From an uncultured archaeon (GTDB lineage Archaea > Asgardarchaeota > Heimdallarchaeia > Heimdallarchaeales > Heimdallarchaeaceae): a DNA stretch of 12,490 bases. The translations under genes and the position numbers were made by a program. Shown here piece after piece: positions 370 to 12,490 of the stretch; positions within the stretch are counted from its first letter, which is position 1, and each line of letters starts with the position of its first letter. The stretch covers positions 1 through 12,490 of the forward strand of contig CAZJUB010000075.1 in the NCBI GenBank assembly GCA_964549075.1, read 5' to 3'. Below the pieces are notes generated by a model, which was not told where the DNA came from, ran no database searches, and saw only the letters and a list, made by a program, of their open reading frames with translations.

Positions 370-448
370 GATTGAAGCTGGCTAAATTGTATTTATTTCA
401 ACTTCTATAACTCATCAGCATCTTCTTTTTCAGTAGCTAGCTTCAATC
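370..448. repeat. 15-bp inverted repeat enclosing 49 nt
   Basis: GATTGAAGCTGGCTA (370-384) and TAGCTAGCTTCAATC (434-448) are complementary at 14/15 positions. The single mismatch would be a G-U pair in a plus-strand RNA. Confidence 0.75.
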
Positions 449-502
449 CACTCTTTCTCTCATTTAATCTTAAAACAAGTTATTAGTAATAGACTTGAAA
501 GA

Positions 503-583
503 TATATGAAATATAATTAAAAAAATACTCTATATTTCACAAATTATATGAAATATTGTTTATTATATGATGTATATTTTCAC
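503..583. promoter_or_regulatory. Two ~42-bp tandem units, each an inverted half-site pair (putative operator array)
   Basis: TATATGAAATAT occurs at 503-514 and 545-556. TATATTTCAC is at 531-540 and TATATTTTCAC at 573-583. TGAAATATA (507-515) is the exact reverse complement of TATATTTCA (531-539). Confidence 0.5.
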
Positions 584-692
584 TTATATTTGCTATATGT
601 TAAACGTTAAAAAAGCTGATTAGAAAGCCTTAAAAGGCATTTTTCGAAAATAAATTTGTGAACAGAATAGTAATCATTGTCATTAACTTACA

Positions 693-2105
693 ATGATCTA
701 TATTATTAACTCCAAAAATACTATAATACTCATTGACTTGAGGAGATGGGAATTGAACAGAGAAGAAATTGATTTGAGTAATAACAAAGATAAGAATCTC
801 TTAACAATTTTATTACAACTATTGTTATCTCCACTACTCATGGTTATTTTTAGTTGTACCTTAGTTAGCTTAATTATTATCGGCACTTTGCAGAATATCT
901 TTATCCTTCTAACTTGCAAAAAAAATCAATTATTATCAACGTGGTCTGAAATCTGTATAAGGAAGTTTTCTAACTATGTCTTCAATTCATTATTGTTAGA
1001 GGAAGAAAAAAAACTTGAAAATGTACAAGTAAATTCAGCTTTAGAAAATGACACTCAAAATTATCAGATATTGGATGTCTTAAAGAGAATTCCCTTCCTT
1101 GTTATTTTATTCATTGTTTGGATTTTCTACTCTATAGGTTTTTATTTTTATTTCTATGCCATTCATTTAAAATATATCACTAAAAAATATCCAACAGGAT
1201 CGATAAAAAATGCAAAAATCATAATTTCTGATTTGGTACGATTAACTAACTTCCTTGTCTACAATACCGAATCTTCCCAAAAAATGAATTGGTTGTATGA
1301 AAATGAATGGAAATCTCTTATTTTTATTTTATGTATCTCATTTTTTTTCTCGCTAAATGTACTAAGATATAACTCATTTTATTTCTCCCCTCTTATTGTT
1401 CTTTTGATCTTTTTAGGGATATTTGTTGTTTTAATACCAATTTATCTCAAAATGCCATCTGATGATGTTTCTCCTTCATTTAAAGAAATTCTAACCAATA
1501 TTGGATTTAAATTATCTAAAAGTGTAATAAAAGACACTTTAATAGCCTTCACTATTGTTTCCTTCATATTACTCCTAATTTACAGTTTTCTTCTTCTGTT
1601 TTTTTATGATTTTAGTGACATTGTAACTTATGGAAGGGATACTTGGTATTATATTATTCAAGGACTATATCCAGGAATTACAGAAGAAATTATTTTTAGG
1701 GGATATGTGATGAGAATATTTAGAAGAAAAAATAGTGTTAGAAAAACCATTATCATTTCTAGTGTCGTTTTTGGACTAATACATCTTATTGGAGCTACTC
1801 TTGATTCATATGGATTTTCTATTCTTCAAGTAATATTTGCAACACTTTTTGGTATAATTTTAGCATTTTTCAGAGTCGTCTCAAATTCCTTACTTGGTCC
1901 CATTATAATTCATTCTACGTATGATTGTGTTATCTATTCTGTTTTATTGGTTAATGATAATGTTCCTCCATTTGTCGATTATATAACCTATATTATTGCT
2001 ATAGTGACTCTAATTCTATCCTTGTTGTTGTTTGTTCCTTTTCTTAAATGGGCTTATAATAGAAAAAATCTATACTTATTACGAAAGAAAGAAATAAAAT
2101 CATAA
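693..2105 (+). CDS. CPBP family (Abi/CAAX type II) intramembrane glutamic endopeptidase with N-terminal tandem DUF4389-like membrane repeats
   Basis: CPBP motifs are EEIIFRG (aa331-337), FGLIH (H364) and HSTYD (aa407-411), and the protein has many TM segments. Two N-terminal blocks resemble DUF4389. The real start may be the in-frame TTG at 753, which is preceded by AGGAG at 741-745. Confidence 0.85.
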   Translation: MIYIINSKNTIILIDLRRWELNREEIDLSNNKDKNLLTILLQLLLSPLLMVIFSCTLVSLIIIGTLQNIFILLTCKKNQLLSTWSEICIRKFSNYVFNSLLLEEEKKLENVQVNSALENDTQNYQILDVLKRIPFLVILFIVWIFYSIGFYFYFYAIHLKYITKKYPTGSIKNAKIIISDLVRLTNFLVYNTESSQKMNWLYENEWKSLIFILCISFFFSLNVLRYNSFYFSPLIVLLIFLGIFVVLIPIYLKMPSDDVSPSFKEILTNIGFKLSKSVIKDTLIAFTIVSFILLLIYSFLLLFFYDFSDIVTYGRDTWYYIIQGLYPGITEEIIFRGYVMRIFRRKNSVRKTIIISSVVFGLIHLIGATLDSYGFSILQVIFATLFGIILAFFRVVSNSLLGPIIIHSTYDCVIYSVLLVNDNVPPFVDYITYIIAIVTLILSLLLFVPFLKWAYNRKNLYLLRKKEIKS

Positions 2106-2242
2106 TCTTGCTTTACCATTTGAATTTAAAAACAATTGACTACTAAATTTCATCTAATTTTATTTTTGTGTCTAATATAAATAGTCAAAAATTTTACATA
2201 ATCGTAAGAAGTTATTATAGTTTGATAGGTTAGTGAATAACA

Positions 2243-4228
2243 ATGTTCTCTCAGAAACAAGAAAAGGAAGAATACCAATTTCTAATAAACGAAATTAATT
2301 CATTAGATTATGAGCATACTCTTGAAAAATACAACGAACTAAAACCAAAAATTGAGAGATTCTTCAAGAATGCTAAAGATGTTATAAATCTAGACATACT
2401 TAAGGATAAAATTACTAGTATTCCAGTTTTTCGAACAAAAGAAGCTGATATTGGATTCTTCTTAGAATTCATATCAGATTTGAAAGGAGTAGCAAATAGG
2501 TGTGTTTGGGAAATTCTTTTCACAAAATTATGGTACCACAAATTTGATGAAAAGAAAGAAAATATAGAAGCTAATCAAGAAAACGACCTTGGAACTAGAA
2601 TTATAGCATCTCTTAGATGTTCAGATAAAATGCTAACAAAAATCTACTTATATCGTAAATATACTACACTTTTTTCCTTTTCTGAGTGGTATTATATTTT
2701 TGGTGATAAAACCATCATAAATCTGCACAAGATAAAAATAAGTAACACTAAAGATTTAGTCAATGCGACACTTTCATTCTTTAGGTCAGAAAAATTATCA
2801 CTTGAAGATTTGTATGAAGAAATAACGAAAATAATTGAACAAATGAAAAATCAAGAAGATGAAAATATTCTCAAAAACATGAAAAATTGGCTTGCTGAAT
2901 TACTTTCTTTATGGGGATTTCCACCAGAAAATGAAATAATTAAATTGTTTGATTCTTTTATGGATGTAGAAAAGGATCTAGTTAATGTACTTGGAGTTGG
3001 TTACTATGAACATATTTTACATTCCTTAAGAGTATTTCTTCTTGGCTTTCAATTAATTGCAATTATTAGAGATTATGAGAATCGCTTTGATAAGAATCAA
3101 TTTAAAATCGATATATTGGGATGGGTCATAGCTTCTTTCTTTCATGACTTAGGTTATGGAGTTGAAAAAATCAATAAATTAACATCAAGCATTCAGAGAA
3201 GTTATACAAATTTTGGAAAAGTAGATGCATCTTCATTTATAATCTCAGAATCAGGAAGAATAATTGCTGAAAAATTGATGAATTCTATGGAAAAGATAAT
3301 AAAACTTGATAATTCAGAATATTCTTTTCTTCCAGATGAATTTGAACATTTAAAAATCAATCCTATTTTAAAAAGCTGGGATGAGAAAAACCATGGTATT
3401 ATAAGTTCAGTTGTATTTTGGCAATCACTTATAGATTTAGTGGCAAGAGATTATACATTTTACCTTAAGCACCAAAGAAATTGGAATGATATTTTTTATA
3501 GAGTATTATTAGCTATGACATTGCATTCAATGAATCCAGATCACGCATATTACTTCAATTTTGATGTTCCAAAAAAAAATGAAGAAGGATTATCCCCTTC
3601 TTATGATATTAACGAACATCCTCTGCTAATCTCATTCATTCTTCTTTTATTTGATACAATAGAATACATAGAAAGAAGAACATTTACAGGTAAAACTTAC
3701 TTAGATGTCGCTCAACCTAATATAGACCTTGAACTAGAAATTGATTTTAACTACTCTTTAAAGAGATATATAGAGGTTAATATTTCTGCTATATATGACA
3801 ATATGAATGAAAATGAAATTGTTGAAATAGCTGACAAAATTCTTCCAAAATTTTATGGTTTCTCCTCATATAATTATGGTGTTAATATGAGCTTACAAAA
3901 TAAAGGAAGTTCAAAGAAGGTAATATTCCCACTTTTAAGGAGCGAATATGAAAGATTTGATGCATACACTAAAGACAATAATATTAAAACTGAAATTAAA
4001 GAAATTGAAGAATTACATGAATTATATAAGAGTTATTTTTTTGTTATATTAACTGAGAATGGATATAATGAGCAAGAAATAGAAACGATTGTTAGAGAAA
4101 AAGATTTGAAACACCTAATTCCAAAGAGAGTTAGCTTTCAAATATATTGTTTTGCATCTATGAAAAAAAAATTCATGCGAAATTTTGATAGATTTAAGGC
4201 AGATGAGAAATTCTTAGAATTAATTTAA
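2243..4228 (+). CDS. HD-superfamily metal-dependent phosphohydrolase with a long helical N-terminal region
   Basis: Motif series: EHILHSLRVFLLG (H257/H260), FFHDLGY (H301-D302), NHGIISS (H384), LHS (H428) and LLFDTIE (D471). This is the H...HD...H...H...D order of HD domains. Confidence 0.8.
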   Translation: MFSQKQEKEEYQFLINEINSLDYEHTLEKYNELKPKIERFFKNAKDVINLDILKDKITSIPVFRTKEADIGFFLEFISDLKGVANRCVWEILFTKLWYHKFDEKKENIEANQENDLGTRIIASLRCSDKMLTKIYLYRKYTTLFSFSEWYYIFGDKTIINLHKIKISNTKDLVNATLSFFRSEKLSLEDLYEEITKIIEQMKNQEDENILKNMKNWLAELLSLWGFPPENEIIKLFDSFMDVEKDLVNVLGVGYYEHILHSLRVFLLGFQLIAIIRDYENRFDKNQFKIDILGWVIASFFHDLGYGVEKINKLTSSIQRSYTNFGKVDASSFIISESGRIIAEKLMNSMEKIIKLDNSEYSFLPDEFEHLKINPILKSWDEKNHGIISSVVFWQSLIDLVARDYTFYLKHQRNWNDIFYRVLLAMTLHSMNPDHAYYFNFDVPKKNEEGLSPSYDINEHPLLISFILLLFDTIEYIERRTFTGKTYLDVAQPNIDLELEIDFNYSLKRYIEVNISAIYDNMNENEIVEIADKILPKFYGFSSYNYGVNMSLQNKGSSKKVIFPLLRSEYERFDAYTKDNNIKTEIKEIEELHELYKSYFFVILTENGYNEQEIETIVREKDLKHLIPKRVSFQIYCFASMKKKFMRNFDRFKADEKFLELI

Positions 4229-4397
4229 GAGTAAAAAAACGCTACTTTTAATATTTTTGAGGAACCTGATGAAGCAATACAAATACTTAATTTTACTTCT
4301 AGATTTACTAAACTAATATATTTCTAAGAGTGGAGAGAATTTTCTGGTTTTTTAAATTTAAGCAACAATCTTTAATTTTTAAATAATATATAATAAA

Positions 4398-4430
4398 TTT
4401 ATATACACAAATCTAGATTATATCTGGGAG
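4398..4430 (+). promoter_or_regulatory. Putative TATA box and SD-like motif for the STAND-TPR gene
   Basis: TTTATATA at 4398-4405 and GGGAG at 4426-4430, upstream of ATG 4440. A palindrome AATCTAGATT (4410-4419) lies between them. Confidence 0.4.
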
Positions 4431-4439
4431 AAGAGAAAG

Positions 4440-7400
4440 ATGATAGAATGGCTATTACAGAATTCTCGGAATATTGTTTTTTGGTTTATCTTAGTTTTGA
4501 TAGAAATCCCAATCACTACATTAATTCAAATCTATCTTAATCTATCTTGGTATAATTTACTAATTCTTTCTGTTTCCTTATTCATCTTTTTCTTCATTCT
4601 TGATAAATGGTTTTTTTATATTCTTAAAATATCCACATATATTTATGATTTGATAAAAGAATTCAAAGAGTCAACTCCAGGTTCCTATATAGATTCAGAG
4701 GAGTTCTTAGTCTCAAATAGGTTAGTGAAACCTTTTGATAAAGAAAATTTCTCAATTCCTTCTGTTAGCCCCGAGTTTATGCAATATCAAAATTATTTAT
4801 TCGAGGTAGAAGATGTTAAATTAACAGCTGAAAAGACATTTCTTACAGATGTTATTGAAAATCATTCACAAATTTTACTCTGTAGTTCTGGTGGAATGGG
4901 AAAAACAACTTCTTTATTTCAGATAGGTTATAATTCATTAGAATACTTAGAGAAAGTATTTCCAACGGATAGATTTTATATTTTATTCTTTAAAATCCTT
5001 ATCAGATCAATTAGATTTAGAAAAAATAAAAACCTTAAGTTGTTATACCTTCCATTATTATTTAATTTTAATAAACAAAAAACAAAAGTAAATCAAATAT
5101 TTCCAGATAATTCTTCTCTCCACAGTTGTAAAAAAATCGTTAAAATGAGTAAAAAGCTGTATAGATTAAAAGTAAGTTTTCTATTATTATTTGACAATTT
5201 TATCCCTCATCCTGATGACTTAAATCAACTTGAAACTAAATTTGAAGAAATCAAACAGTTTTCAAGTAAAATAATATGTACTACTAGTTTAGCTATATTA
5301 CAAAGTCACAAAGTGCAAAATGCATTACGAAGTAAGAATTTCGCAATTTATATTCTGGATTATTTAGATTTTTCAGATGTTAATAATTTTCTTAATCATC
5401 TAGAATCGAATGTTCAAAGAGAAGAGAAAGTAGAACCACTCTTATATGAAATAGGTATCAAACCATTTGAACCATGGTTACAAACTAGATTGATGAATTT
5501 ACTTCGACATCCATTATACATGTACTTTTACAGAAAGATCTCATCTAGTTCTATTAATGAAGATATAATGGCTATGGAACTATTCGAAAAATATTTTTCA
5601 CTTCTCAAAGAAGAAATTGAAGAAAAAATAGGATATAAGTATTTTATTAATACGGAAGAATTCATTAATAATATAACTTTGTGGTTTTTAAATGAGAAAT
5701 TTGGTTCATTTATACCTATTTCTGATCGTTTCCTTTTATATAAGAACCAGTTACTAGAAGATAATATTATCATCAGACAAGAATCCAGCTTTTTTTGGCA
5801 TTCTGAACTAGATGCTTATATTATTTATTTAATAGTTACAAAAGAGTTGTATAAGAAAGCTAAAGAAGAATATATGGCTTATGAACCTATTATTTTCTTC
5901 TTAGAAACCCTAGTAGAGAGAGACGAGTGGTTTCTATTATATCTTCCTAAATTCTTAGAGCTTCTTACTCTTTCTACTAATTCAAATCTTCTACAAGCTT
6001 TCTTTCAGCAATTTATCCAGCTTAATATAAGTCAAAAATTAATTGATAAAGGACGTGATTTTGAAATTCAACAGTATTTATTTGATGATTTAGCATATAT
6101 TTTGTCAATTGTTCATAAAAAATATGAGGAAGCTAATATTTTCTTCGATTTTTCAGAAAAATTAGGAGAAACAACTATTCACCATTATAATTTACGTATC
6201 AACAATGAACTAAATTTCGGAAATACTCAAAAAATGAAATTATATGCAGAAAAAATAATTGAAATTGATCCATATAATTCATCAGCATATGGCACACTAG
6301 GAGTAAGTGAAATGTTAAATAGGAACTTTGTGAGTGCAATAAAAATTCTATCTGAAGGAATAGGTAAACATCCAAAGGATAGATTCTTAGCTAAGAATCT
6401 AGCTATAGCTCAGAATTTTGGTCTTCATTATAAAGAATCTTTACATACAATTGAACAATTCTTTCCTGATACAATTATTTGGAAAAATGTCAAGCAAAAT
6501 AAGAAATATTTTGGTTTAGATCTTGCTTATCTTAAGGCAATGGATTTCTTTCAGATTAAAGATGTAGATAGAAGTATCAAAATATTAAAAGATGTTATTA
6601 TTTTAGGTTCAAAAGAAGCTAGATTTAGGCAATCTCTAGCTTATATATACGCAGTTAAAAAGAATTATACAGATTCACTCAATTTGTTTGAAGAGATTCA
6701 TTCTGTTCTTAACCTATATTATCCTGAACTTTATTTTGGATGGATAATTGTCATGATAGAATCAGGTAGACTGGATAGATTGTCTGAAATCTTAGATGAG
6801 TTTGAATCTAAATATCCAAATGAATCTAGATTACTATTCCTTAAAGGAAGATTATCAGAATTTAGGAATGAGGATGATAAAGCAATCAACTATTATAAAG
6901 AGGTTTTAGATCAACGAGTTGTTCAAAAAGAAGCATTAAAGCGACTAATGAATATTTATTATAAGGAAGGAAGAACTGAAGAAGCATCATCTATTTTAAA
7001 GCAAGCTATAGAGAAATTCCCTAAAGAACAATATTTTCAGTATTTAAAAACAGATATTTTAAAAGAGAGAGACAGGATAAAACAAATCAAATCAAAGGTT
7101 CAAGAATTTCAGAACAAGGAGGATGATAATCAAGACATAAAAATAGAGAATGTAGTTAATATGATAGATAATAAAATAACTCTTGATCCAGAATCTATTG
7201 AAGCACTAACCTTACTAGGTACCGGTGAGCTTAATTCTGTTGAACTTAGTATAAAGATTCTTAAGAAAAAACTTCCAAATATAAATGTAAACAAAATCGA
7301 AAGAGTTCATGATTTGATAGAACTAGTAGTACAAACCTTTAGCTTTAACCAATTTTTATCAAATTTAATAGGAGGTAAAATTCCAGAAGAAGTTCAGAAT

Positions 7401-7610
7401 ACTATTATGAGTGATTTGGATATTTTTTTAATTGCATCAAAAGACAAAGAATATTTGCTTGAAGGATTGGTTGGTTCTCTTATATTCATTGAAAAATACA
7501 TTTTTAGACTCAGAATATTAAATTTAATCACAGACACTTTTAAACAGTTAGGCAAAGATGAATTAGCAGAAAGATTTAGTAAGTGGATAAAGAATATAAT
7601 TGAAAATTGA
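4440..7610 (+). CDS. Membrane-anchored STAND (NACHT-like) NTPase with C-terminal TPR repeats
   Basis: Two N-terminal hydrophobic helices (aa ~12-62). Walker A ILLCSSGGMGKTT (K155), Walker B-like LLLFDNF (D252), sensor-1-like IICTTS and the STAND xPL motif LRHPLYM. TPR-like repeats from ~aa590-875, e.g. IEIDPYNSSAYGTLG, KHPKDRFLAKNLA, KYPNESRLLFLKG...AINYYKEVL, GRTEEASSILKQAIEKFP. Confidence 0.8.
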   Translation: MIEWLLQNSRNIVFWFILVLIEIPITTLIQIYLNLSWYNLLILSVSLFIFFFILDKWFFYILKISTYIYDLIKEFKESTPGSYIDSEEFLVSNRLVKPFDKENFSIPSVSPEFMQYQNYLFEVEDVKLTAEKTFLTDVIENHSQILLCSSGGMGKTTSLFQIGYNSLEYLEKVFPTDRFYILFFKILIRSIRFRKNKNLKLLYLPLLFNFNKQKTKVNQIFPDNSSLHSCKKIVKMSKKLYRLKVSFLLLFDNFIPHPDDLNQLETKFEEIKQFSSKIICTTSLAILQSHKVQNALRSKNFAIYILDYLDFSDVNNFLNHLESNVQREEKVEPLLYEIGIKPFEPWLQTRLMNLLRHPLYMYFYRKISSSSINEDIMAMELFEKYFSLLKEEIEEKIGYKYFINTEEFINNITLWFLNEKFGSFIPISDRFLLYKNQLLEDNIIIRQESSFFWHSELDAYIIYLIVTKELYKKAKEEYMAYEPIIFFLETLVERDEWFLLYLPKFLELLTLSTNSNLLQAFFQQFIQLNISQKLIDKGRDFEIQQYLFDDLAYILSIVHKKYEEANIFFDFSEKLGETTIHHYNLRINNELNFGNTQKMKLYAEKIIEIDPYNSSAYGTLGVSEMLNRNFVSAIKILSEGIGKHPKDRFLAKNLAIAQNFGLHYKESLHTIEQFFPDTIIWKNVKQNKKYFGLDLAYLKAMDFFQIKDVDRSIKILKDVIILGSKEARFRQSLAYIYAVKKNYTDSLNLFEEIHSVLNLYYPELYFGWIIVMIESGRLDRLSEILDEFESKYPNESRLLFLKGRLSEFRNEDDKAINYYKEVLDQRVVQKEALKRLMNIYYKEGRTEEASSILKQAIEKFPKEQYFQYLKTDILKERDRIKQIKSKVQEFQNKEDDNQDIKIENVVNMIDNKITLDPESIEALTLLGTGELNSVELSIKILKKKLPNINVNKIERVHDLIELVVQTFSFNQFLSNLIGGKIPEEVQNTIMSDLDIFLIASKDKEYLLEGLVGSLIFIEKYIFRLRILNLITDTFKQLGKDELAERFSKWIKNIIEN

Positions 7611-7722
7611 AAGTTTCCATGGATAAAGTATTCTGTTTTTATTAAATGATTTAAGTTACATTTATATATTTGATTCCTTAGTAGTCAACTACCTACCTTA
7701 TTTTACCCACTTTATGTAGTAG

Positions 7723-10311
7723 GTGTATAAAGTGGAAAACATAGTTAAGAAATGCATAATTTCTTTATCTCTAATCGTTATTGTAACTAGTACAATTGTT
7801 CCTATTTTACTCTCACAGGATACTAAATGTCAGAACTGTACTAATATTGATGATTCTAACACTCTCATCAAATCCAAGTGGGATAATATCTCTTTTATCC
7901 TAATTAATGATAGTCTACGAACTGTCAGTGATTTCTCTGGGAAGACACTTCTTTTGGAGTTTTCCTCTTCTACTTGTCCTGATTGTATTAACCAACTTCC
8001 TGCTTTGAGAGATTTTTATGATTTGATGATTGATAATGATTCTTTCGTTCTTCTCACGCTCTTCCTTGATCTCTCCTCTCAAAGCGAACTTCTTGATTAT
8101 TCTATTTTCAACAATATCTCTTGGTTTGTAGGTTCTATTAATTCTGCTAATTACTCTTCTCTTGATCTTTTCTCTATCCCCAGTTTTCATCTCTTCAATT
8201 CTACAAGTCACGAAATCAAAACTGCACAACATTCAATGTCTTTTGGAAGTTTGGTTGATTTCGTTGGCTACACTCTTCCTCCTTACTTTAATCTAGGTGG
8301 GAAAATCTATCATGAACACAAATCTACTCTACCAACCTATTCTCCCTTTTCTTCTGATTTTCTCTTCAGAATTTTCACTTCTAACACCTATTCTCTAGGA
8401 GACACTCGCAATTTTTACTGTCTTTCAACTGGAACAACTTATCGAACACTTTCTGCACAAGTTGTTAATATCACAGACCATGCTTATTTTTTTACTGAAT
8501 CAGCTATTATCACTAGTCTTGGTCTAGGCAATGTTGTTGAAAGAATTTCTTCTGATGTAGAACGTTTCGATAGTGATATTTATTCTATCGAAACAACAGT
8601 CTTTGGTTCTGTTGAAGGTTCCTTTGGAAATATAGGGGATGGAAAGGTTATTGTTCTTTACGCTGTTCTTCCTACTGGTTGGGCAGGATATTTCGATCCC
8701 TATAATGAGTATCCTCAAGAAGTCCTTGATGGTTACTTTTCTAACGAATGGGAGATGGTTTATCTTGATTATATTGATAGTTTTGAAACTACTCTCGCTC
8801 ACGAGTTCCAACATCTCATCCATTTCAATCACGACCCTCATGAGTCCATTTGGTTCGATGAAGGATGTTCAGAGTTAGCTGGTTTCTTAACTCATTCTAT
8901 ACCTGAAGAATGGGAAAATATTACTTCATTTGTTCTACAATTCAGTTTCAGTTATGATGATTCTCTTATTTTCTGGAACTATTTCAGTGATGGTGGGAGA
9001 GATGTGAGAATCGATTATGGAGGAGCTTATCTTTTCCTTCTTTACTTCTATGAACAATTCAACACTTCTGCCTTATCATTACTTGTTCAAGATACTCAAA
9101 CAGCTGTTATTAGTCTTACAGCTTTTCTTGCTTCCTATAATATGACGTTTAATGAGTTCTTTCTCAACTGGCAAACTGCTTTGATTGTGCATGAATTTAC
9201 ATGTAAAGAATATGTTTTAGAGAGCACTTTTCTCAGATTAAATTCTCTCAAAACTCTCTCAACTGAGAAAGTGGAGCAGATTTCTGTACCATATTATGGT
9301 TCATATGGAATTACGATAAACTTGGTTGAGCAGTTTGAGATAACCATCAGTAATCCTTACAGCTCTCATTTAGGAGTTGTAATTCTCACTTATTCAAATA
9401 CTACTCTTGTTAATATAGACCATCTAGAGATCTGTAATCAAAGTCTAACATTGAATACCCCAGAAGTCTGTTCCCACATACAAATTATATTTTCCAAACT
9501 TGATGTTAACCATCCCTCTATTTCCAGTGGACTTGGTTTAGGTCCTTCAGCTACACTTTATGTTAGCACTATTAATCCATTCAAATTATCTATCAATCAA
9601 CCTATCATCAATCAGAACTCTACTTCTTTAACTATCTCTGCTTTGAGCATTTACTTTATCAATGGAACTGACATTTTCTTTTCTTCAGCAGAGGATTGTG
9701 TTAAAATTAGAGTATATTCTGAAAAAGTCGAATGTGATTATTTTCTGGAGTTTAATCCTTCTTTATTCAGAGGATGGGGAATAATCATCAATCTTTCTGA
9801 CTACTCTCCGGGTACATATAATTTGGAACTAATAGTAAATTCTTCCTCTTTCTATAACATTTCTCAATACTTGACTTCATTTGATATCAGTTTAGATTTA
9901 GAGCTTTCTTTTCCTAACTTCGGATATGATTCGTCTAACTCCTCTATCCAGATTAGTATTGACATATATTCTTCCTTTACTAATAGAGTTCTCATTTCTG
10001 AGCTTTTAGTTATTGCGTATGTTTTTTCAATAGATAAAAAATTCTATAATTCGTTTCAACTTTTCAGTCAAGACTATTTTACGTGGAATATCTCTTTATC
10101 TCTTGAATCTTTTGAGAAAAATTATTATTATGTTGTCATCTTCGCAACCTTTGAGACACAAGAATTCCATTCTTTACCATCAGATTTATTGTTTATTGAT
10201 TTACTCCCCACTTCTCAATCAAACTTCACCGTTATTCCTCTCTTTCCTTTCTTCATTATTTTCACTGTAAGATTTATAATTGAAAGACGATATAGGAGTA
10301 AGATAGTATGA
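7723..10311 (+). CDS. Secreted, membrane-anchored thioredoxin-like (TlpA-type) + HExxH zinc metallopeptidase (gluzincin, M30-like) fusion
   Basis: N-terminal signal or TM segment. DFSGKTLLLEFSSSTCPDC (C85/C88) plus an SIPSF cis-Pro motif indicate a TlpA-like fold. TLAHEFQHLIH (aa360-364), WFDEGCSE (E380) and DYGGAYLF indicate a gluzincin peptidase. A beta-rich C-terminal region ends in a hydrophobic stretch and basic tail. The start is GTG 7723 (alternatively GTG 7732), with TTTATATA at 7661-7668. Confidence 0.8.
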   Translation: MYKVENIVKKCIISLSLIVIVTSTIVPILLSQDTKCQNCTNIDDSNTLIKSKWDNISFILINDSLRTVSDFSGKTLLLEFSSSTCPDCINQLPALRDFYDLMIDNDSFVLLTLFLDLSSQSELLDYSIFNNISWFVGSINSANYSSLDLFSIPSFHLFNSTSHEIKTAQHSMSFGSLVDFVGYTLPPYFNLGGKIYHEHKSTLPTYSPFSSDFLFRIFTSNTYSLGDTRNFYCLSTGTTYRTLSAQVVNITDHAYFFTESAIITSLGLGNVVERISSDVERFDSDIYSIETTVFGSVEGSFGNIGDGKVIVLYAVLPTGWAGYFDPYNEYPQEVLDGYFSNEWEMVYLDYIDSFETTLAHEFQHLIHFNHDPHESIWFDEGCSELAGFLTHSIPEEWENITSFVLQFSFSYDDSLIFWNYFSDGGRDVRIDYGGAYLFLLYFYEQFNTSALSLLVQDTQTAVISLTAFLASYNMTFNEFFLNWQTALIVHEFTCKEYVLESTFLRLNSLKTLSTEKVEQISVPYYGSYGITINLVEQFEITISNPYSSHLGVVILTYSNTTLVNIDHLEICNQSLTLNTPEVCSHIQIIFSKLDVNHPSISSGLGLGPSATLYVSTINPFKLSINQPIINQNSTSLTISALSIYFINGTDIFFSSAEDCVKIRVYSEKVECDYFLEFNPSLFRGWGIIINLSDYSPGTYNLELIVNSSSFYNISQYLTSFDISLDLELSFPNFGYDSSNSSIQISIDIYSSFTNRVLISELLVIAYVFSIDKKFYNSFQLFSQDYFTWNISLSLESFEKNYYYVVIFATFETQEFHSLPSDLLFIDLLPTSQSNFTVIPLFPFFIIFTVRFIIERRYRSKIV

Positions 10312-10964
10312 AGAGCCAGAGATATGTAGTCTTTCTCATCATTCTTTTCTCACTACCTTTAGCTGTCTCTCCTTTCCTTTCTGAAGCTAAGGTTTTTGTT
10401 GGTGATATTGCTTCAACAGATAATGATAATTTATTTGAACTGAGTATTTCAGTTGACCTTTATTGGCATTCTGGTTATAATACCATCAATACAACTGTTA
10501 CTCTTCTTCATCTTGATTCCCAATGCAGTAAAGTAACTTATTTCAGACTCTATTTTCGAATAGGGAAAAGAACCGAGTATTATAGTAATCCAGGAACTTT
10601 AGATTCTGTCGGTTCTTCTTGTTTTCTTTCTACTGCAGTTTTTTACAAACCTCTTTATGGCAGAGAACAACTGAGTTTTTACTGTAAACATACTTTGGTT
10701 TACAAAGACAGTTCTACTGAACGATGGGGAACTGAATGGAATAAACTTACTCACATTAACGCTGATACTTTCTTTGGCCATTATGGGTATATTCTATACA
10801 CTCTTTTCGCAGTTGTGGGGCTCTCTGGAGTCTATCTTGTCTATTGGTTTCGTCACAGAATATTTCGAAAATCCCATGTGCAAATCTTAAAATGCTCAGA
10901 ATGTGGATATGAAATTCAAGCAGATGATAATTTTTGTGCTGAGTGTGGAACAAAAGTAGGATAA
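10308..10964 (+). CDS. Single-pass membrane protein with signal peptide and cytoplasmic C-terminal zinc ribbon
   Basis: Signal peptide (MKSQRYVVFLIILFSLPLAV...AK), a TM helix at ~aa160-181, and C-terminal CSECG...FCAECG. ATGA overlap with the upstream stop codon (10308-10311). Confidence 0.85.
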   Translation: MKSQRYVVFLIILFSLPLAVSPFLSEAKVFVGDIASTDNDNLFELSISVDLYWHSGYNTINTTVTLLHLDSQCSKVTYFRLYFRIGKRTEYYSNPGTLDSVGSSCFLSTAVFYKPLYGREQLSFYCKHTLVYKDSSTERWGTEWNKLTHINADTFFGHYGYILYTLFAVVGLSGVYLVYWFRHRIFRKSHVQILKCSECGYEIQADDNFCAECGTKVG

Positions 10965-11183
10965 TTAGTGATTTGTAGCAAGATAAAAATCATTACTATT
11001 TTTCCATGTTGTTATATTGATATTTATTCAGTTACAATTCATTTTTGTTTAATATTTTCTAATTCACTGACTAGTAATTTCTTCTTCATTGACTTTATGT
11101 AGCAATAAATGAGGAGATTGTTAAAAGTATAATATAAATCTACATAAAATATAATGAAATTTTTGTATTCATATCTGTTTTTG

Positions 11184-11194
11184 AAAATAAAAAA
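11184..11194 (-). terminator. Possible oligo-T terminator for the 11224-11751 gene
   Basis: Minus strand reads TTTTTTATTTT about 30 nt after the stop codon. T-runs are common here. Confidence 0.25.
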
Positions 11195-11223
11195 CCGAAC
11201 TATAGAATGTTAATTTTTTTCTT

Positions 11224-11751
11224 CTATTTTTGTCTTTTTTTTCCAAATCCTCTATTCCTTCTTGAATTCATTATTATATTCATTATAGTATATAAATTTT
11301 CGATTAGTTCTCTAATCTCATTACTTATATCGCTCTTGTCTTTTGTTTGTGTACTAACAACGTTGTGGATTATTAGTCCTGTTAATTTTGCCCAACCATC
11401 AAATATCTTATCAATCTTAATAATATCTGAATGATTTGGTTTTAATTGTATGAGAATTTTGTTTTTAAGTATATCAAGTGAAATTTTTAACTCAGAACAT
11501 GAATTTAGAAGTTTTCTTCTGATACTTTCAATTTCTTTGTCTTCTAGATTATCTGCAATAATCCAGTCTTCCCATATGTCTGATAAACTTCCAATACTCA
11601 ACATAAGTTTGCTTGTTTCTCGTATCAGGTTTTCCTTTGTTTTTGTGAAAATTCGTTTTTCTTGCCATCTATTTGCAAACCATCCGGCTAATATTATACC
11701 TAAAATAGTGAATGAACCTGCTATGACACTTGATAACCAATCATTTGACAT
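11224..11751 (-). CDS. Hypothetical protein with a single N-terminal TM helix and helical soluble domain
   Basis: 175-aa ORF with hydrophobic SVIAGSFTILGIILAGWFA followed by amphipathic helices and a basic tail. SD-like AGTGAT precedes the ATG. Confidence 0.75.
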   Translation of the reverse strand: MSNDWLSSVIAGSFTILGIILAGWFANRWQEKRIFTKTKENLIRETSKLMLSIGSLSDIWEDWIIADNLEDKEIESIRRKLLNSCSELKISLDILKNKILIQLKPNHSDIIKIDKIFDGWAKLTGLIIHNVVSTQTKDKSDISNEIRELIENLYTIMNIIMNSRRNRGFGKKRQK

Positions 11752-11817
11752 TTTATCACTTTATTATATAATATGGTTTTAAAAACTTATGCAGGAAATT
11801 GTAAGTTCTCTGCAAAG

Positions 11818-11825
11818 TATATATA
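11818..11825 (+). promoter_or_regulatory. Putative BRE-TATA promoter, probably giving a leaderless transcript
   Basis: gcaaagTATATATA ends 22 nt before ATG 11848, and no SD motif is visible in between. Confidence 0.5.
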
Positions 11826-11847
11826 ATGGTTCATATTATTTGTTTTT

Positions 11848-12372
11848 ATGTCATCTTCGAAAATAGCAATTTTACAGGAATTCATCGAAAAGATCCAAGA
11901 GACATCAAAAAAAGAACAGGAAGTATTTATTTCTCAAGAACAACTTGAGAAAAAACCAAGATTCTTTAAAAATAGAAGAGCTGATTTCTTCATGATAATT
12001 GATGAAAGTGGTTTGCCAATATCTAGTGCAGGGGAATTACCTTCTGGTTTTGATCTTTCATTAGCTTCTGGATTTTTTGTAGCTTTGACCACTTTTAGCA
12101 GCGAAGTCTTCTCAATAAATAATGATATGGAATACATGATTTCATGTGATTCATCCATAATATTCCTACGTTTTAAAACATATCATTTCATTGCTGTCAT
12201 AAGAAATTCAAACAGAACCGTTCTAAAAAGAATTAGAAAAAAAATTGAAAAATTTGCTTACCAATTTCACATTAATTATGAAGGTTCATTCAATGAAAAT
12301 GTAGTATTTACTATAGATGAAAATGAATTAGAACCTTTTCTTAGGAAATTTTCGTTTGTTAAAGGATATTAA
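11848..12372 (+). CDS. Longin/roadblock-like (profilin-like fold) small protein
   Basis: Pattern FFMIIDESGLPI...LASGFFVALTTFSSEV...beta strands...long C-terminal helix, typical of the longin/roadblock-like domains expanded in Asgard archaea. A charged N-terminal helix precedes it. Confidence 0.7.
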   Translation: MSSSKIAILQEFIEKIQETSKKEQEVFISQEQLEKKPRFFKNRRADFFMIIDESGLPISSAGELPSGFDLSLASGFFVALTTFSSEVFSINNDMEYMISCDSSIIFLRFKTYHFIAVIRNSNRTVLKRIRKKIEKFAYQFHINYEGSFNENVVFTIDENELEPFLRKFSFVKGY

Positions 12373-12490
12373 TATATTTTTTAAAACTTTAACAATATGA
12401 GATGCTCTTTTATAAAACCATGTTCTAAGTATATATTTCGCCAATATTGCACACGGTAACTCCTCTGTCATCGGTACCAAACTTGCTTTG

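Follow-up and report, generated by a model that had tools for sequence, protein, structure and literature searches.

Adjacent HD-superfamily and membrane STAND-TPR genes in a low-GC island of an archaeal draft genome, and the question of whether they form a pair

Do two neighbouring archaeal genes, one encoding an HD-superfamily protein and the other a membrane-anchored STAND-like NTPase with a tetratricopeptide repeat (TPR) array, form a dedicated immune pair? The question is raised by contig C75 of the draft genome G000 (3.23 Mb, 32% GC, 217 contigs), which in its entire length of 12,490 nucleotides (nt) is the window analysed here and holds seven substantial open reading frames (ORFs), p1 to p7. 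An earlier note on this DNA had read the second and third of these, p2 (2243..4228, + strand, 661 amino acids (aa), HD-superfamily protein of an unnamed family) and p3 (4440..7610, + strand, 1056 aa, STAND-like NTPase), separated by a spacer of 211 nt (4229..4439), as a candidate NLR-like module in which p3 could be a sensor and p2 a separately encoded nucleotide-hydrolysing effector. The coordinates, strand and gap given for the two genes proved exact, while a conserved two-gene p2-p3 module is not supported, the evidence being negative and partly indirect. The explanation that we lean towards is that p2 and p3 are two separate, lineage-restricted accessory genes lying beside p1 in a low-GC, variable island of a Heimdall-type (Asgard) genome, and do not constitute a dedicated sensor-effector pair.

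Adjacency and relatives of the two genes

The adjacency in the window is not an assembly artefact, since contigs of three sequencing runs read across the p2-p3 junction and show no differences (X1, X2 and X4, covering window positions 390-12465, 3465-5746 and 4103-4953, respectively). The stretch is present in nine DNA runs carrying the label salt marsh metagenome, with no RNA run among those listed for it; X1 to X3 may represent the source sample and all runs may stem from one campaign.

When analysing the neighbours of HD relatives, flanks were read at the paralogue of p2 in the same genome, at L008, L009/L010 and L011, and at the remote loci L013-L023, L025, L027 and L030-L038. At no locus with readable flanks was a P-loop or STAND gene found beside the HD gene, and tblastn of p3 against loci L001-L025 returned only p3 itself and an SF1 helicase. 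The paralogue (G000:C133:738-3586, - strand) is located between an upstream gene for a NosD-like beta-helix protein and a downstream conserved ORF of 231 aa without family, an arrangement that is repeated in L009 and L010, the former also holding an ORF of 1637 aa without Pfam match. An HSDR_N/type-I-restriction-like fragment lies upstream of the p2 relative in L008, and in L011 a gene for a rhomboid intramembrane protease is situated 174 nt upstream of it. The nearest to an exception is L018, where a partial TPR and HEAT protein, in which no P-loop was detected, is encoded upstream of one of the ParB_N/HD/radical-SAM triads described below.

Both genes are rare. Relatives of p2 comprise three clusters at 51-53% identity (P0002/P0008, P0003 and P0004), the partial homologue P0011, which at 58% identity is the closest orthologue, the C133 paralogue (625 aa, 27% identity), five paralogue-type metagenome loci (L008-L012) and a scatter of remote relatives. 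The source of P0011 is labelled as a Candidatus Heimdallarchaeaceae metagenome-assembled genome, a label that fits the Asgard-like host proposed earlier. Full-length p2 was found only in G000, both among 83 genomes of the class, where any match at 1e-5 occurred in 3, and among 400 genomes of the phylum, where matches occurred in 11, the others being remote HD cores. In the congeneric genome G002 (L028, G002:C89) a remnant of 49 codons of a p2-type C-terminus, with the motif NFQIYCYHSTKE, can be identified at 738-884; it sits between two ORFs without homologue in G000 and looks like a decayed copy.

Residues 1-600 of p3 matched only themselves among 5.8 billion 90% clusters, and a full HMMER pass over 1.84 billion representatives revealed two further proteins, P0006 and P0007. 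The former (1109 aa, E 1.9e-27 with residues 1-600) is the sole full-length homologue, with the same layout of transmembrane (TM) segments, P-loop and TPRs, and aligns with p3 at 25% identity over 999 aa (E 2e-64). The latter, a kinase-STAND protein (5.1e-4), was rejected as a true homologue, its similarity being limited to 40 P-loop columns (hhalign probability 83.6%). Six-frame searches with the N-terminal half of p3 gave matches in 2 of 61 relatives and in 2 of the 400 phylum genomes, namely G000 and, as an SF1 helicase, G041. Relatives of the alignments A1 and A5 were absent from genome contigs (0 of 73 and 0 of 110 pattern matches) and from viral contigs (0 of 119 and 0 of 548), and PHROGs gave no viral family for p1-p4, p6 and p7. 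Judged by sequence models, neither p2 nor p3 belongs to a named family, and each is a new and divergent member of a known superfamily.

The remaining evidence on adjacency is indirect. From its first residue onward P0011 aligns with residues 451-657 of p2; this means that the 5' part of its gene is missing and that the 25.6-kb contig extends downstream, towards the side on which p3 would lie. P0004 is encoded on a contig of 53.6 kb. No p3-like protein from the source of P0011 or from the P0004 contig is present in the protein collections (the 5.8 billion clusters and 1.84 billion representatives); as the N-terminal 600 aa of p3 have a single real homologue there, neither contig can encode a recognisable p3 relative. 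Had such a relative co-diverged with p2 on either contig, its protein would be expected among these collections and easily detected. The contig of P0007 has a length of 44.2 kb, different from both. Conversely, the source of P0006, the contig of which measures only 5.6 kb, yielded no p2 fragment. The earlier note had itself held that its module would fall if homologues of the two genes were never adjacent elsewhere, were not enriched near defence genes and showed no interaction or antiviral phenotype. As far as testable, the first two points came out against the module: there is no second adjacency in the readable loci and no enrichment of defence genes near the pair, and the proposal of a sensor with a separately encoded HD effector is not upheld.

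The HD protein and its wider clade

Searches with p2 matched no Pfam (at E<=0.1), PADLOC, NCBIfam or PHROG model, and P0003 and P0004 were equally without Pfam families at this threshold, which places none of these proteins within the curated models HD, HD_3 or HD-CE. Comparison with PDB chains, by sequence or by profile (alignment A2), gave nothing meaningful, and Foldseek of the p2 model against PDB revealed no match at E<=0.001. The AlphaFold2 (AF2) model itself (predicted local distance difference test (pLDDT) 81, predicted template modelling score (pTM) 0.87) divides p2 into three parts, all on the + strand: an N-terminal all-helical domain (aa 1-165; 2243..2737), the HD catalytic domain (aa ~170-480; 2750..3682) and a C-terminal alpha/beta domain (aa ~495-661; 3725..4225), the last with strands at 496-505, 509-518, 545-553 and 559-563 plus helices. 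The C-terminal domain is kept in the close orthologues and in the paralogue clade (aligned in A1; P0011 is 58% identical over 451-657). When the model was run through VIA-align, all of the top 24 rows were HD-type enzymes and the match was to an all-alpha HD fold. The best structural matches were cyclic-nucleotide phosphodiesterases, which outscored SAMHD1.

The predicted metal ligands of the HD domain are H257/H260, H301-D302, H384, H428 and D471. The residues H301-D302 (codons at 3143..3148, + strand), already proposed as the HD dyad, are invariant in 23 of 23 aligned sequences, which bears out both the dyad and the HD-domain reading of p2. In this 23-sequence alignment (A2) the invariant residues are H257, H260, G268, W294, H301, D302, G304, H384, H428 and L467, and E243, S388, D471 and R478 are conserved in at least 90%; in the alignment of five sequences (A1) all residues of the metal-ligand motif are invariant. 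According to the accessible part of a review (PMC8177086), the extended motif H..HD..H..H..D is the sequence diagnostic of a dinuclear site in the HD superfamily, and substrate and reaction of HD enzymes are not readable from sequence. The invariant H384 and H428 supply the two extra histidines between HD and D that this part of the review asks for, and from its H..HD..H..H..D ligand set p2 would therefore be of the dinuclear (two-metal) type. Going by sequence and model, p2 most likely represents an unnamed family of HD-fold enzymes and acts as a metal-dependent phosphodiesterase or phosphohydrolase.

The remote HD relatives have a common core with p2 at 14-23% identity, are 392-615 aa long and are without the terminal domains of p2. 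A Qat-like variant was found in a genome of the Asgard phylum (L030, G182:C69:41127-44861), in which a QatC/QueC-like gene (2307-3734, - strand; PADLOC QatC, 9.5e-18) is followed by the HD gene (1126-2301, - strand; 392 aa) and a TatD DNase gene (332-1117, - strand; Pfam 4.8e-49). Eight loci on metagenome contigs hold a ParB_N/HD/radical-SAM triad (L013:4899-8581, L015:5624-9245, L016:7025-10647, L017:460-4081, L018:1821-5442, L019:8321-11943, L022:8315-11944 and L023:849-4478), and L020, L021 and L025 hold it in part. The three proteins are of ~340, ~500 and ~366 aa, respectively, and the gene ends usually abut or overlap. No PADLOC model matched the triads except for one weak PDC-S02; the triad has the look of a system for nucleic-acid modification or conflict that has not been described. 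Other relatives lie with a ParB_N gene on one side and an N6_N4 DNA methylase gene on the other (L038, G298:C50), after SPASM and uracil-DNA-glycosylase-superfamily (UDG) genes with Nmad2 nearby (L037, G298:C14), beside DUF2284 (L031 and L033) or after a response-regulator gene (L036). That its remote members adjoin QatC, TatD, ParB_N, radical-SAM, UDG, Nmad2 and methylase genes suggests, for the clade as a whole, a chemistry of nucleic acids or nucleotides within conflict-type systems. The HSDR_N-like gene next to the HD gene of L008 adds to this picture. It merits a family model, with an invariant H-x2-H...W...HD-x-G...H...H...D core and about 20 loci collected.

The membrane STAND-TPR protein

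The N-terminus of p3 (aa 10-65; 4467..4634, + strand) is a hydrophobic hairpin of two, possibly three, TM segments and a candidate effector or anchor; segments 10-35 and 33-65 score 2.18 and 2.15 (Kyte-Doolittle, over 19 residues), and the equivalent in P0006 is found at 28-87. The hairpin is followed by a P-loop NTPase core (aa ~140-330; 4857..5429, + strand) with Walker A GGMGKTT (G151-T157, including K155), Walker B LLLFD252 and a sensor-1 position at T281-T282-S283. The Walker columns are common to p3 and P0006 and correspond to the STAND motifs. Two positions differ between the proteins, N253 just after the Walker B aspartate being D in P0006 (window 5196-5201) and S283 at the sensor-1 position being R (window 5286-5288). 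The sequence HPLYMYFY (aa 357-364; 5508..5531, + strand), conserved with P0006, presumably occupies the place of the STAND winged-helix 'PLxL' motif.

The helical-repeat/TPR sensor array covers aa ~453-912 (5796..7175, + strand). Several Pfam TPR families were found at ~601-912, among them TPR_19 (E 4.5e-12), TPR_14 (1.8e-11) and TPR_2, and the sequence matches of p3 in PDB are all TPR proteins, including consensus-TPR. VIA-align of a model of a p3 fragment gave TPR-like matches only at fragment residues 362-509, equal to p3 ~453-600, and the TPR-like repeats therefore begin near residue 453. The C-terminal region (aa 913-1056; 7176..7607, + strand) contains no Pfam family and aligns with P0006.

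The NTPase core itself is harder to place. At threshold no NACHT, NB-ARC or nSTAND model of Pfam matched it; nSTAND_NTPase5 came closest, with an E of 0.024 and 14.9 bits where 34 are required, and covered just the P-loop. A designed TIM barrel was all that the NTPase segment matched among PDB sequences. With just two sequences in the alignment, residues 92-600 gave a poor AF2 model (pLDDT 48); the strand-helix order of this model (beta-alpha-beta) is that of a P-loop ASCE fold. On this model of pLDDT 48, Foldseek gave first EfAvs5 (SIR2-STAND, E 4.4e-4), followed by SAMD9, ORC/Cdc6 and Avs4 (E 0.13), and an ESM-Atlas feature search with residues 95-560 gave clusters with NACHT, nSTAND_NTPase4, nSTAND3 and NPHP3_N at 0.93 (171-181 shared features). 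A multidomain STAND layout with a C-terminal repeat sensor is present in p3, with its TPR families and N-terminal TM hairpin. Taken together, sequence and models suggest a membrane-anchored STAND-like NTPase with a TPR sensor array. The description of p3 as a TM-NACHT-like-TPR protein thus stands as far as the TM segments, the STAND-like P-loop with K155 and the TPRs are concerned, while the term NACHT-like is only loosely supported, being plausible but unproven. A TM NTPase of the KAP/Tmn type was also considered and rejected, the TM segments of p3 being N-terminal and not inserted in the P-loop domain, with no PADLOC match.

Genomic setting, rival readings and known systems

The gene p1 (693..2105, + strand, 470 aa) encodes a multi-pass membrane CPBP/Rce1-like intramembrane protease (Pfam Rce1-like, E 6.4e-21) with at least ~8 hydrophobic segments. 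It opens a low-GC stretch and is regarded as context, not as a demonstrated part of a system. The GC contents of p1, p2 and p3 are 0.270, 0.272 and 0.268 (window 693-7610), against a mean of 0.323 (standard deviation 0.021) for 2-kb windows of the genome, only 1.1% of which are at or below 0.27; outside the island GC is typical (p4 0.335, p5 0.352, genes of the neighbouring contig C57 0.29-0.37). The distribution of p1 is patchy: of 24 other genomes of the genus, 4 gave a match at E<=1e-10, the best at 31% identity. From low GC and patchiness p1-p3 are therefore seen as a compositionally foreign, variable island. An orthologue of p4 (in G005) and a homologue of p1 (in G014) have entirely different neighbours, with no p2 or p3 beside them. 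No tRNA gene, integrase or flanking repeats were found in the window, the repeats present being short, of low identity and as expected in AT-rich DNA. The location of p1 (window 693-2105) and of the rhomboid gene (L011:466-1302) directly upstream of p2-type HD genes is possibly a coincidence.

Downstream of the island, p4 (7723..10311, + strand, 862 aa) encodes a membrane or secreted protein with weak thioredoxin-like and MXAN_6640-type HExxH signals and TM segments at both ends; genes like p4 form a multi-copy family that 22 of the 24 other genomes of the genus possess. The start of p5 (10308..10964, + strand), for a membrane protein with a C-terminal zinc ribbon, overlaps the end of p4 by 4 nt, and p6 (11224..11751, - strand) and p7 (11848..12372, + strand) complete the window. 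Exact end overlaps of 55 nt join C75 to C57 (16,955 nt, left) and C209 (1,629 nt, right), which are probable flanks; together the three are ~31 kb long, near the length of a 32,476-nt contig of another assembly that carries both p2 and p3. C57 encodes four proteins without assignment, an HNH-repeat protein and three HEAT-repeat proteins (1730, 1000 and 270 aa), and C209 a HAD hydrolase and a formate-tetrahydrofolate ligase. The HNH-repeat protein (778 aa) and the three consecutive HEAT-repeat proteins occupy 4636-16300 of C57 (L059), the HEAT protein of 1000 aa showing a TrmB-like winged helix-turn-helix near its N-terminus, and a 533-aa protein without assignment (2666-4267) contains the Walker A sequence GIYGSGKT.

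A PADLOC search for known defence components, as the earlier note had suggested, gave no matches for p2 and p3, nor for the other genes p1, p4, p5 and p7 or the homologues P0004 and P0006. The matches obtained were a weak one for p6 (PDC-M43B, 8.4e-4), a weak one for the HAD hydrolase to the generic model 'Hydrolase' (2.6e-5) and repeat-driven ones on C57 (HEAT-ARM_XIII and similar). The window with its probable flanks is no recognisable defence island.

When analysing the spacer between p2 and p3 (4229-4439), T-runs were identified after the p2 stop; a TATA-like TTTATATA occupies 4398-4405, which is 35-42 nt ahead of the start codon (ATG) of p3, and a purine-rich GGGAGAAG also precedes this codon. 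It had been proposed that p3 has a TATA box and Shine-Dalgarno sequence of its own and that co-transcription is uncertain. The elements are indeed present and a separate promoter is plausible, but such motifs are common in DNA of 27% GC, a promoter-pattern scan giving 76 sites against 71 expected. As read from these elements, the spacer probably carries p3's own promoter, and p2 and p3 may be separately transcribed.

A new two-gene NLR-like immune module, in which sensing falls to p3 and p2 serves as a separately encoded HD effector or as a regulator in the form of a signal-degrading phosphodiesterase, is judged improbable. The genes are adjacent and co-directional across a junction bridged in three runs, they share one low-GC island and neither occurs outside G000 in the 400 phylum genomes searched; the HD clade has remote members in multi-gene conflict-type loci, and the accessible part of PMC8195603 lists HD domains among the effector domains of STAND and conflict systems. 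Against this stand the lack of a second pairing in the readable loci or, indirectly, in the protein collections, the 211-nt gap with its T-runs and TATA-like box, the candidate effector that p3 already has in its N-terminal TM hairpin and the lack of a PADLOC model for either protein or any window gene, apart from the weak p6 match. A broader proposal, in which the whole p1-p3 island would be a recently acquired, so far unique membrane-associated immune module, with p3 sensing the invader and p2 acting as a soluble nucleic-acid- or nucleotide-cleaving effector or as an off-switch, is a long shot; the island fits joint acquisition, without showing joint function. Hardly any credence is given to the idea that the partner of p2 is not p3 but the upstream protease p1, in a protease and HD unit: p1 ends 137 nt before p2 on the same strand with the same GC, and a rhomboid gene precedes the p2 relative in L011, but these are two different protease families in 2 of ~5 readable paralogue-type loci, the upstream genes are NosD-like in C133/L009 and HSDR_N-like in L008, and an HD gene is lacking next to the best p1 homologue (G014). 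It is also possible that neither gene is immune, p3 being a membrane STAND/TPR signalling or scaffold protein and p2 a housekeeping or second-messenger phosphodiesterase, brought together by chance in a variable region. This would agree with the lack of defence-model matches and with flanks that encode HEAT-repeat giants, a HAD hydrolase and a formate-tetrahydrofolate ligase, with most STAND clades not being defence-associated (PMC13581612, in its accessible part), and with the cyclic-nucleotide phosphodiesterases as best structural matches of p2 and the response-regulator gene before its relative in L036. However, restriction to 1 of 83 class genomes, together with a degraded copy in a congener, is unusual for housekeeping genes, as is a place in the lowest ~1% of GC, and many remote HD relatives lie beside ParB_N, radical-SAM, QatC, TatD, UDG, Nmad2 and methylase genes, for which reasons this explanation is considered unlikely, without being far-fetched.

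The reading preferred here, of p2 and p3 as two separate accessory genes, leaves each with a function of its own, and the low-GC island p1-p3 together with the Qat-like and ParB_N loci of remote HD relatives point to an accessory, conflict-type role. In this role p2, as a phosphodiesterase or nuclease-like enzyme, would act on nucleic acids or nucleotides by cleaving a phosphodiester or phosphoanhydride bond, its N-terminal helical and C-terminal alpha/beta domains targeting or regulating the enzyme. For p3, a self-contained NLR-like sensor may be proposed by analogy with Avs and bNACHT proteins as described in the accessible parts of PMC13581612 and PMC8195603: a trigger ligand bound by the TPRs would drive nucleotide-dependent oligomerisation through the NTPase, and the clustering of the N-terminal membrane hairpins could then disturb the membrane as output. 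Several points weigh against the preferred reading. A defence role is not shown, with PADLOC giving nothing for p2, p3 and P0006, and only 198 of 589 prokaryotic STAND clades are defence-associated in the accessible part of PMC13581612. The finding of no adjacency for the contigs of P0002/P0008, P0003, P0004, P0011 and P0006 is indirect and assumes that all their genes are in the protein collections, and a pairing could be too recent or too rare for a second example, p3 having just one homologue. The co-location of p1-p3 on the same strand with shared atypical GC fits joint acquisition and hence also a functional unit. Finally, the STAND assignment of p3 is soft (model pLDDT of 48, no STAND Pfam family at cut-off, VIA-align matches to the repeats only), and its NTPase may be impaired, binding nucleotide but hydrolysing poorly, because N253 and S283 replace the Asp and Arg of P0006.

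If the pair did act together, the archaeal lineage closest to eukaryotes would possess a sensor of the NLR type whose HD partner is encoded in trans. Present evidence does not warrant listing the two genes as a candidate defence system. According to the accessible part of PMC11291487, Heimdallarchaeia have fewer recognisable defence systems than other Asgard groups, from which its authors infer undiscovered systems. The NLR-like p3 without close relatives and the unmodelled HD family are kinds of gene that could fill this gap, and both bear on the ancestry of eukaryotic NLR-type immunity.

Compared with known systems, p2 departs from the dNTPases of the SAMHD1/dGTPase type, which according to the accessible part of PMC8177086 are mononuclear H..HD..D enzymes, in keeping two further histidines; it matched none of their NCBIfam, Pfam or PADLOC models and its structural scores with them are below those with the phosphodiesterases. 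With this six-residue ligand set and these scores, the earlier idea of antiviral nucleotide depletion is not favoured. Among the dinuclear HD enzymes (class I cyclic-nucleotide phosphodiesterases, YqeK, PgpH and the HD domain of Cas3, as given in that part of PMC8177086) p2 stands apart in having no sequence match to any Pfam HD model or PDB chain, in the extra invariant H257 and in its large N-terminal helical and C-terminal alpha/beta domains. For Pfam HD-CE (PF24391), p2 itself gave no match at E<=0.1 and thus falls short of the gathering cut-off, its relative in L011 gave a sub-threshold one (E 0.0095, 16.1 bits against a cut-off of 27), and an HD-CE cluster at rank 22 with a score of 0.80 in the ESM-Atlas list for p2 is a low-ranked lead; a literature search gave no description of this family, the matches listed being unrelated medical uses of the abbreviation. 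The Qat-like and ParB_N/radical-SAM loci contain an HD core with the same invariant residues as p2 and differ from the window in their other partners, none of which is a STAND. For p3, the nearest known systems are the Avs (AVAST) and bNACHT proteins, with EfAvs5 best and Avs4 behind it as Foldseek leads on a poor NTPase model. It differs from them in falling below every PADLOC, Pfam and NCBIfam STAND threshold, in the bare two-TM hairpin that forms its N-terminus, in its archaeal host and in having a single homologue in the collections. In common with them it has an N-terminal candidate effector, a central P-loop NTPase and a C-terminal TPR-like sensor, the commonest sensor type among prokaryotic STANDs in the accessible part of PMC13581612.

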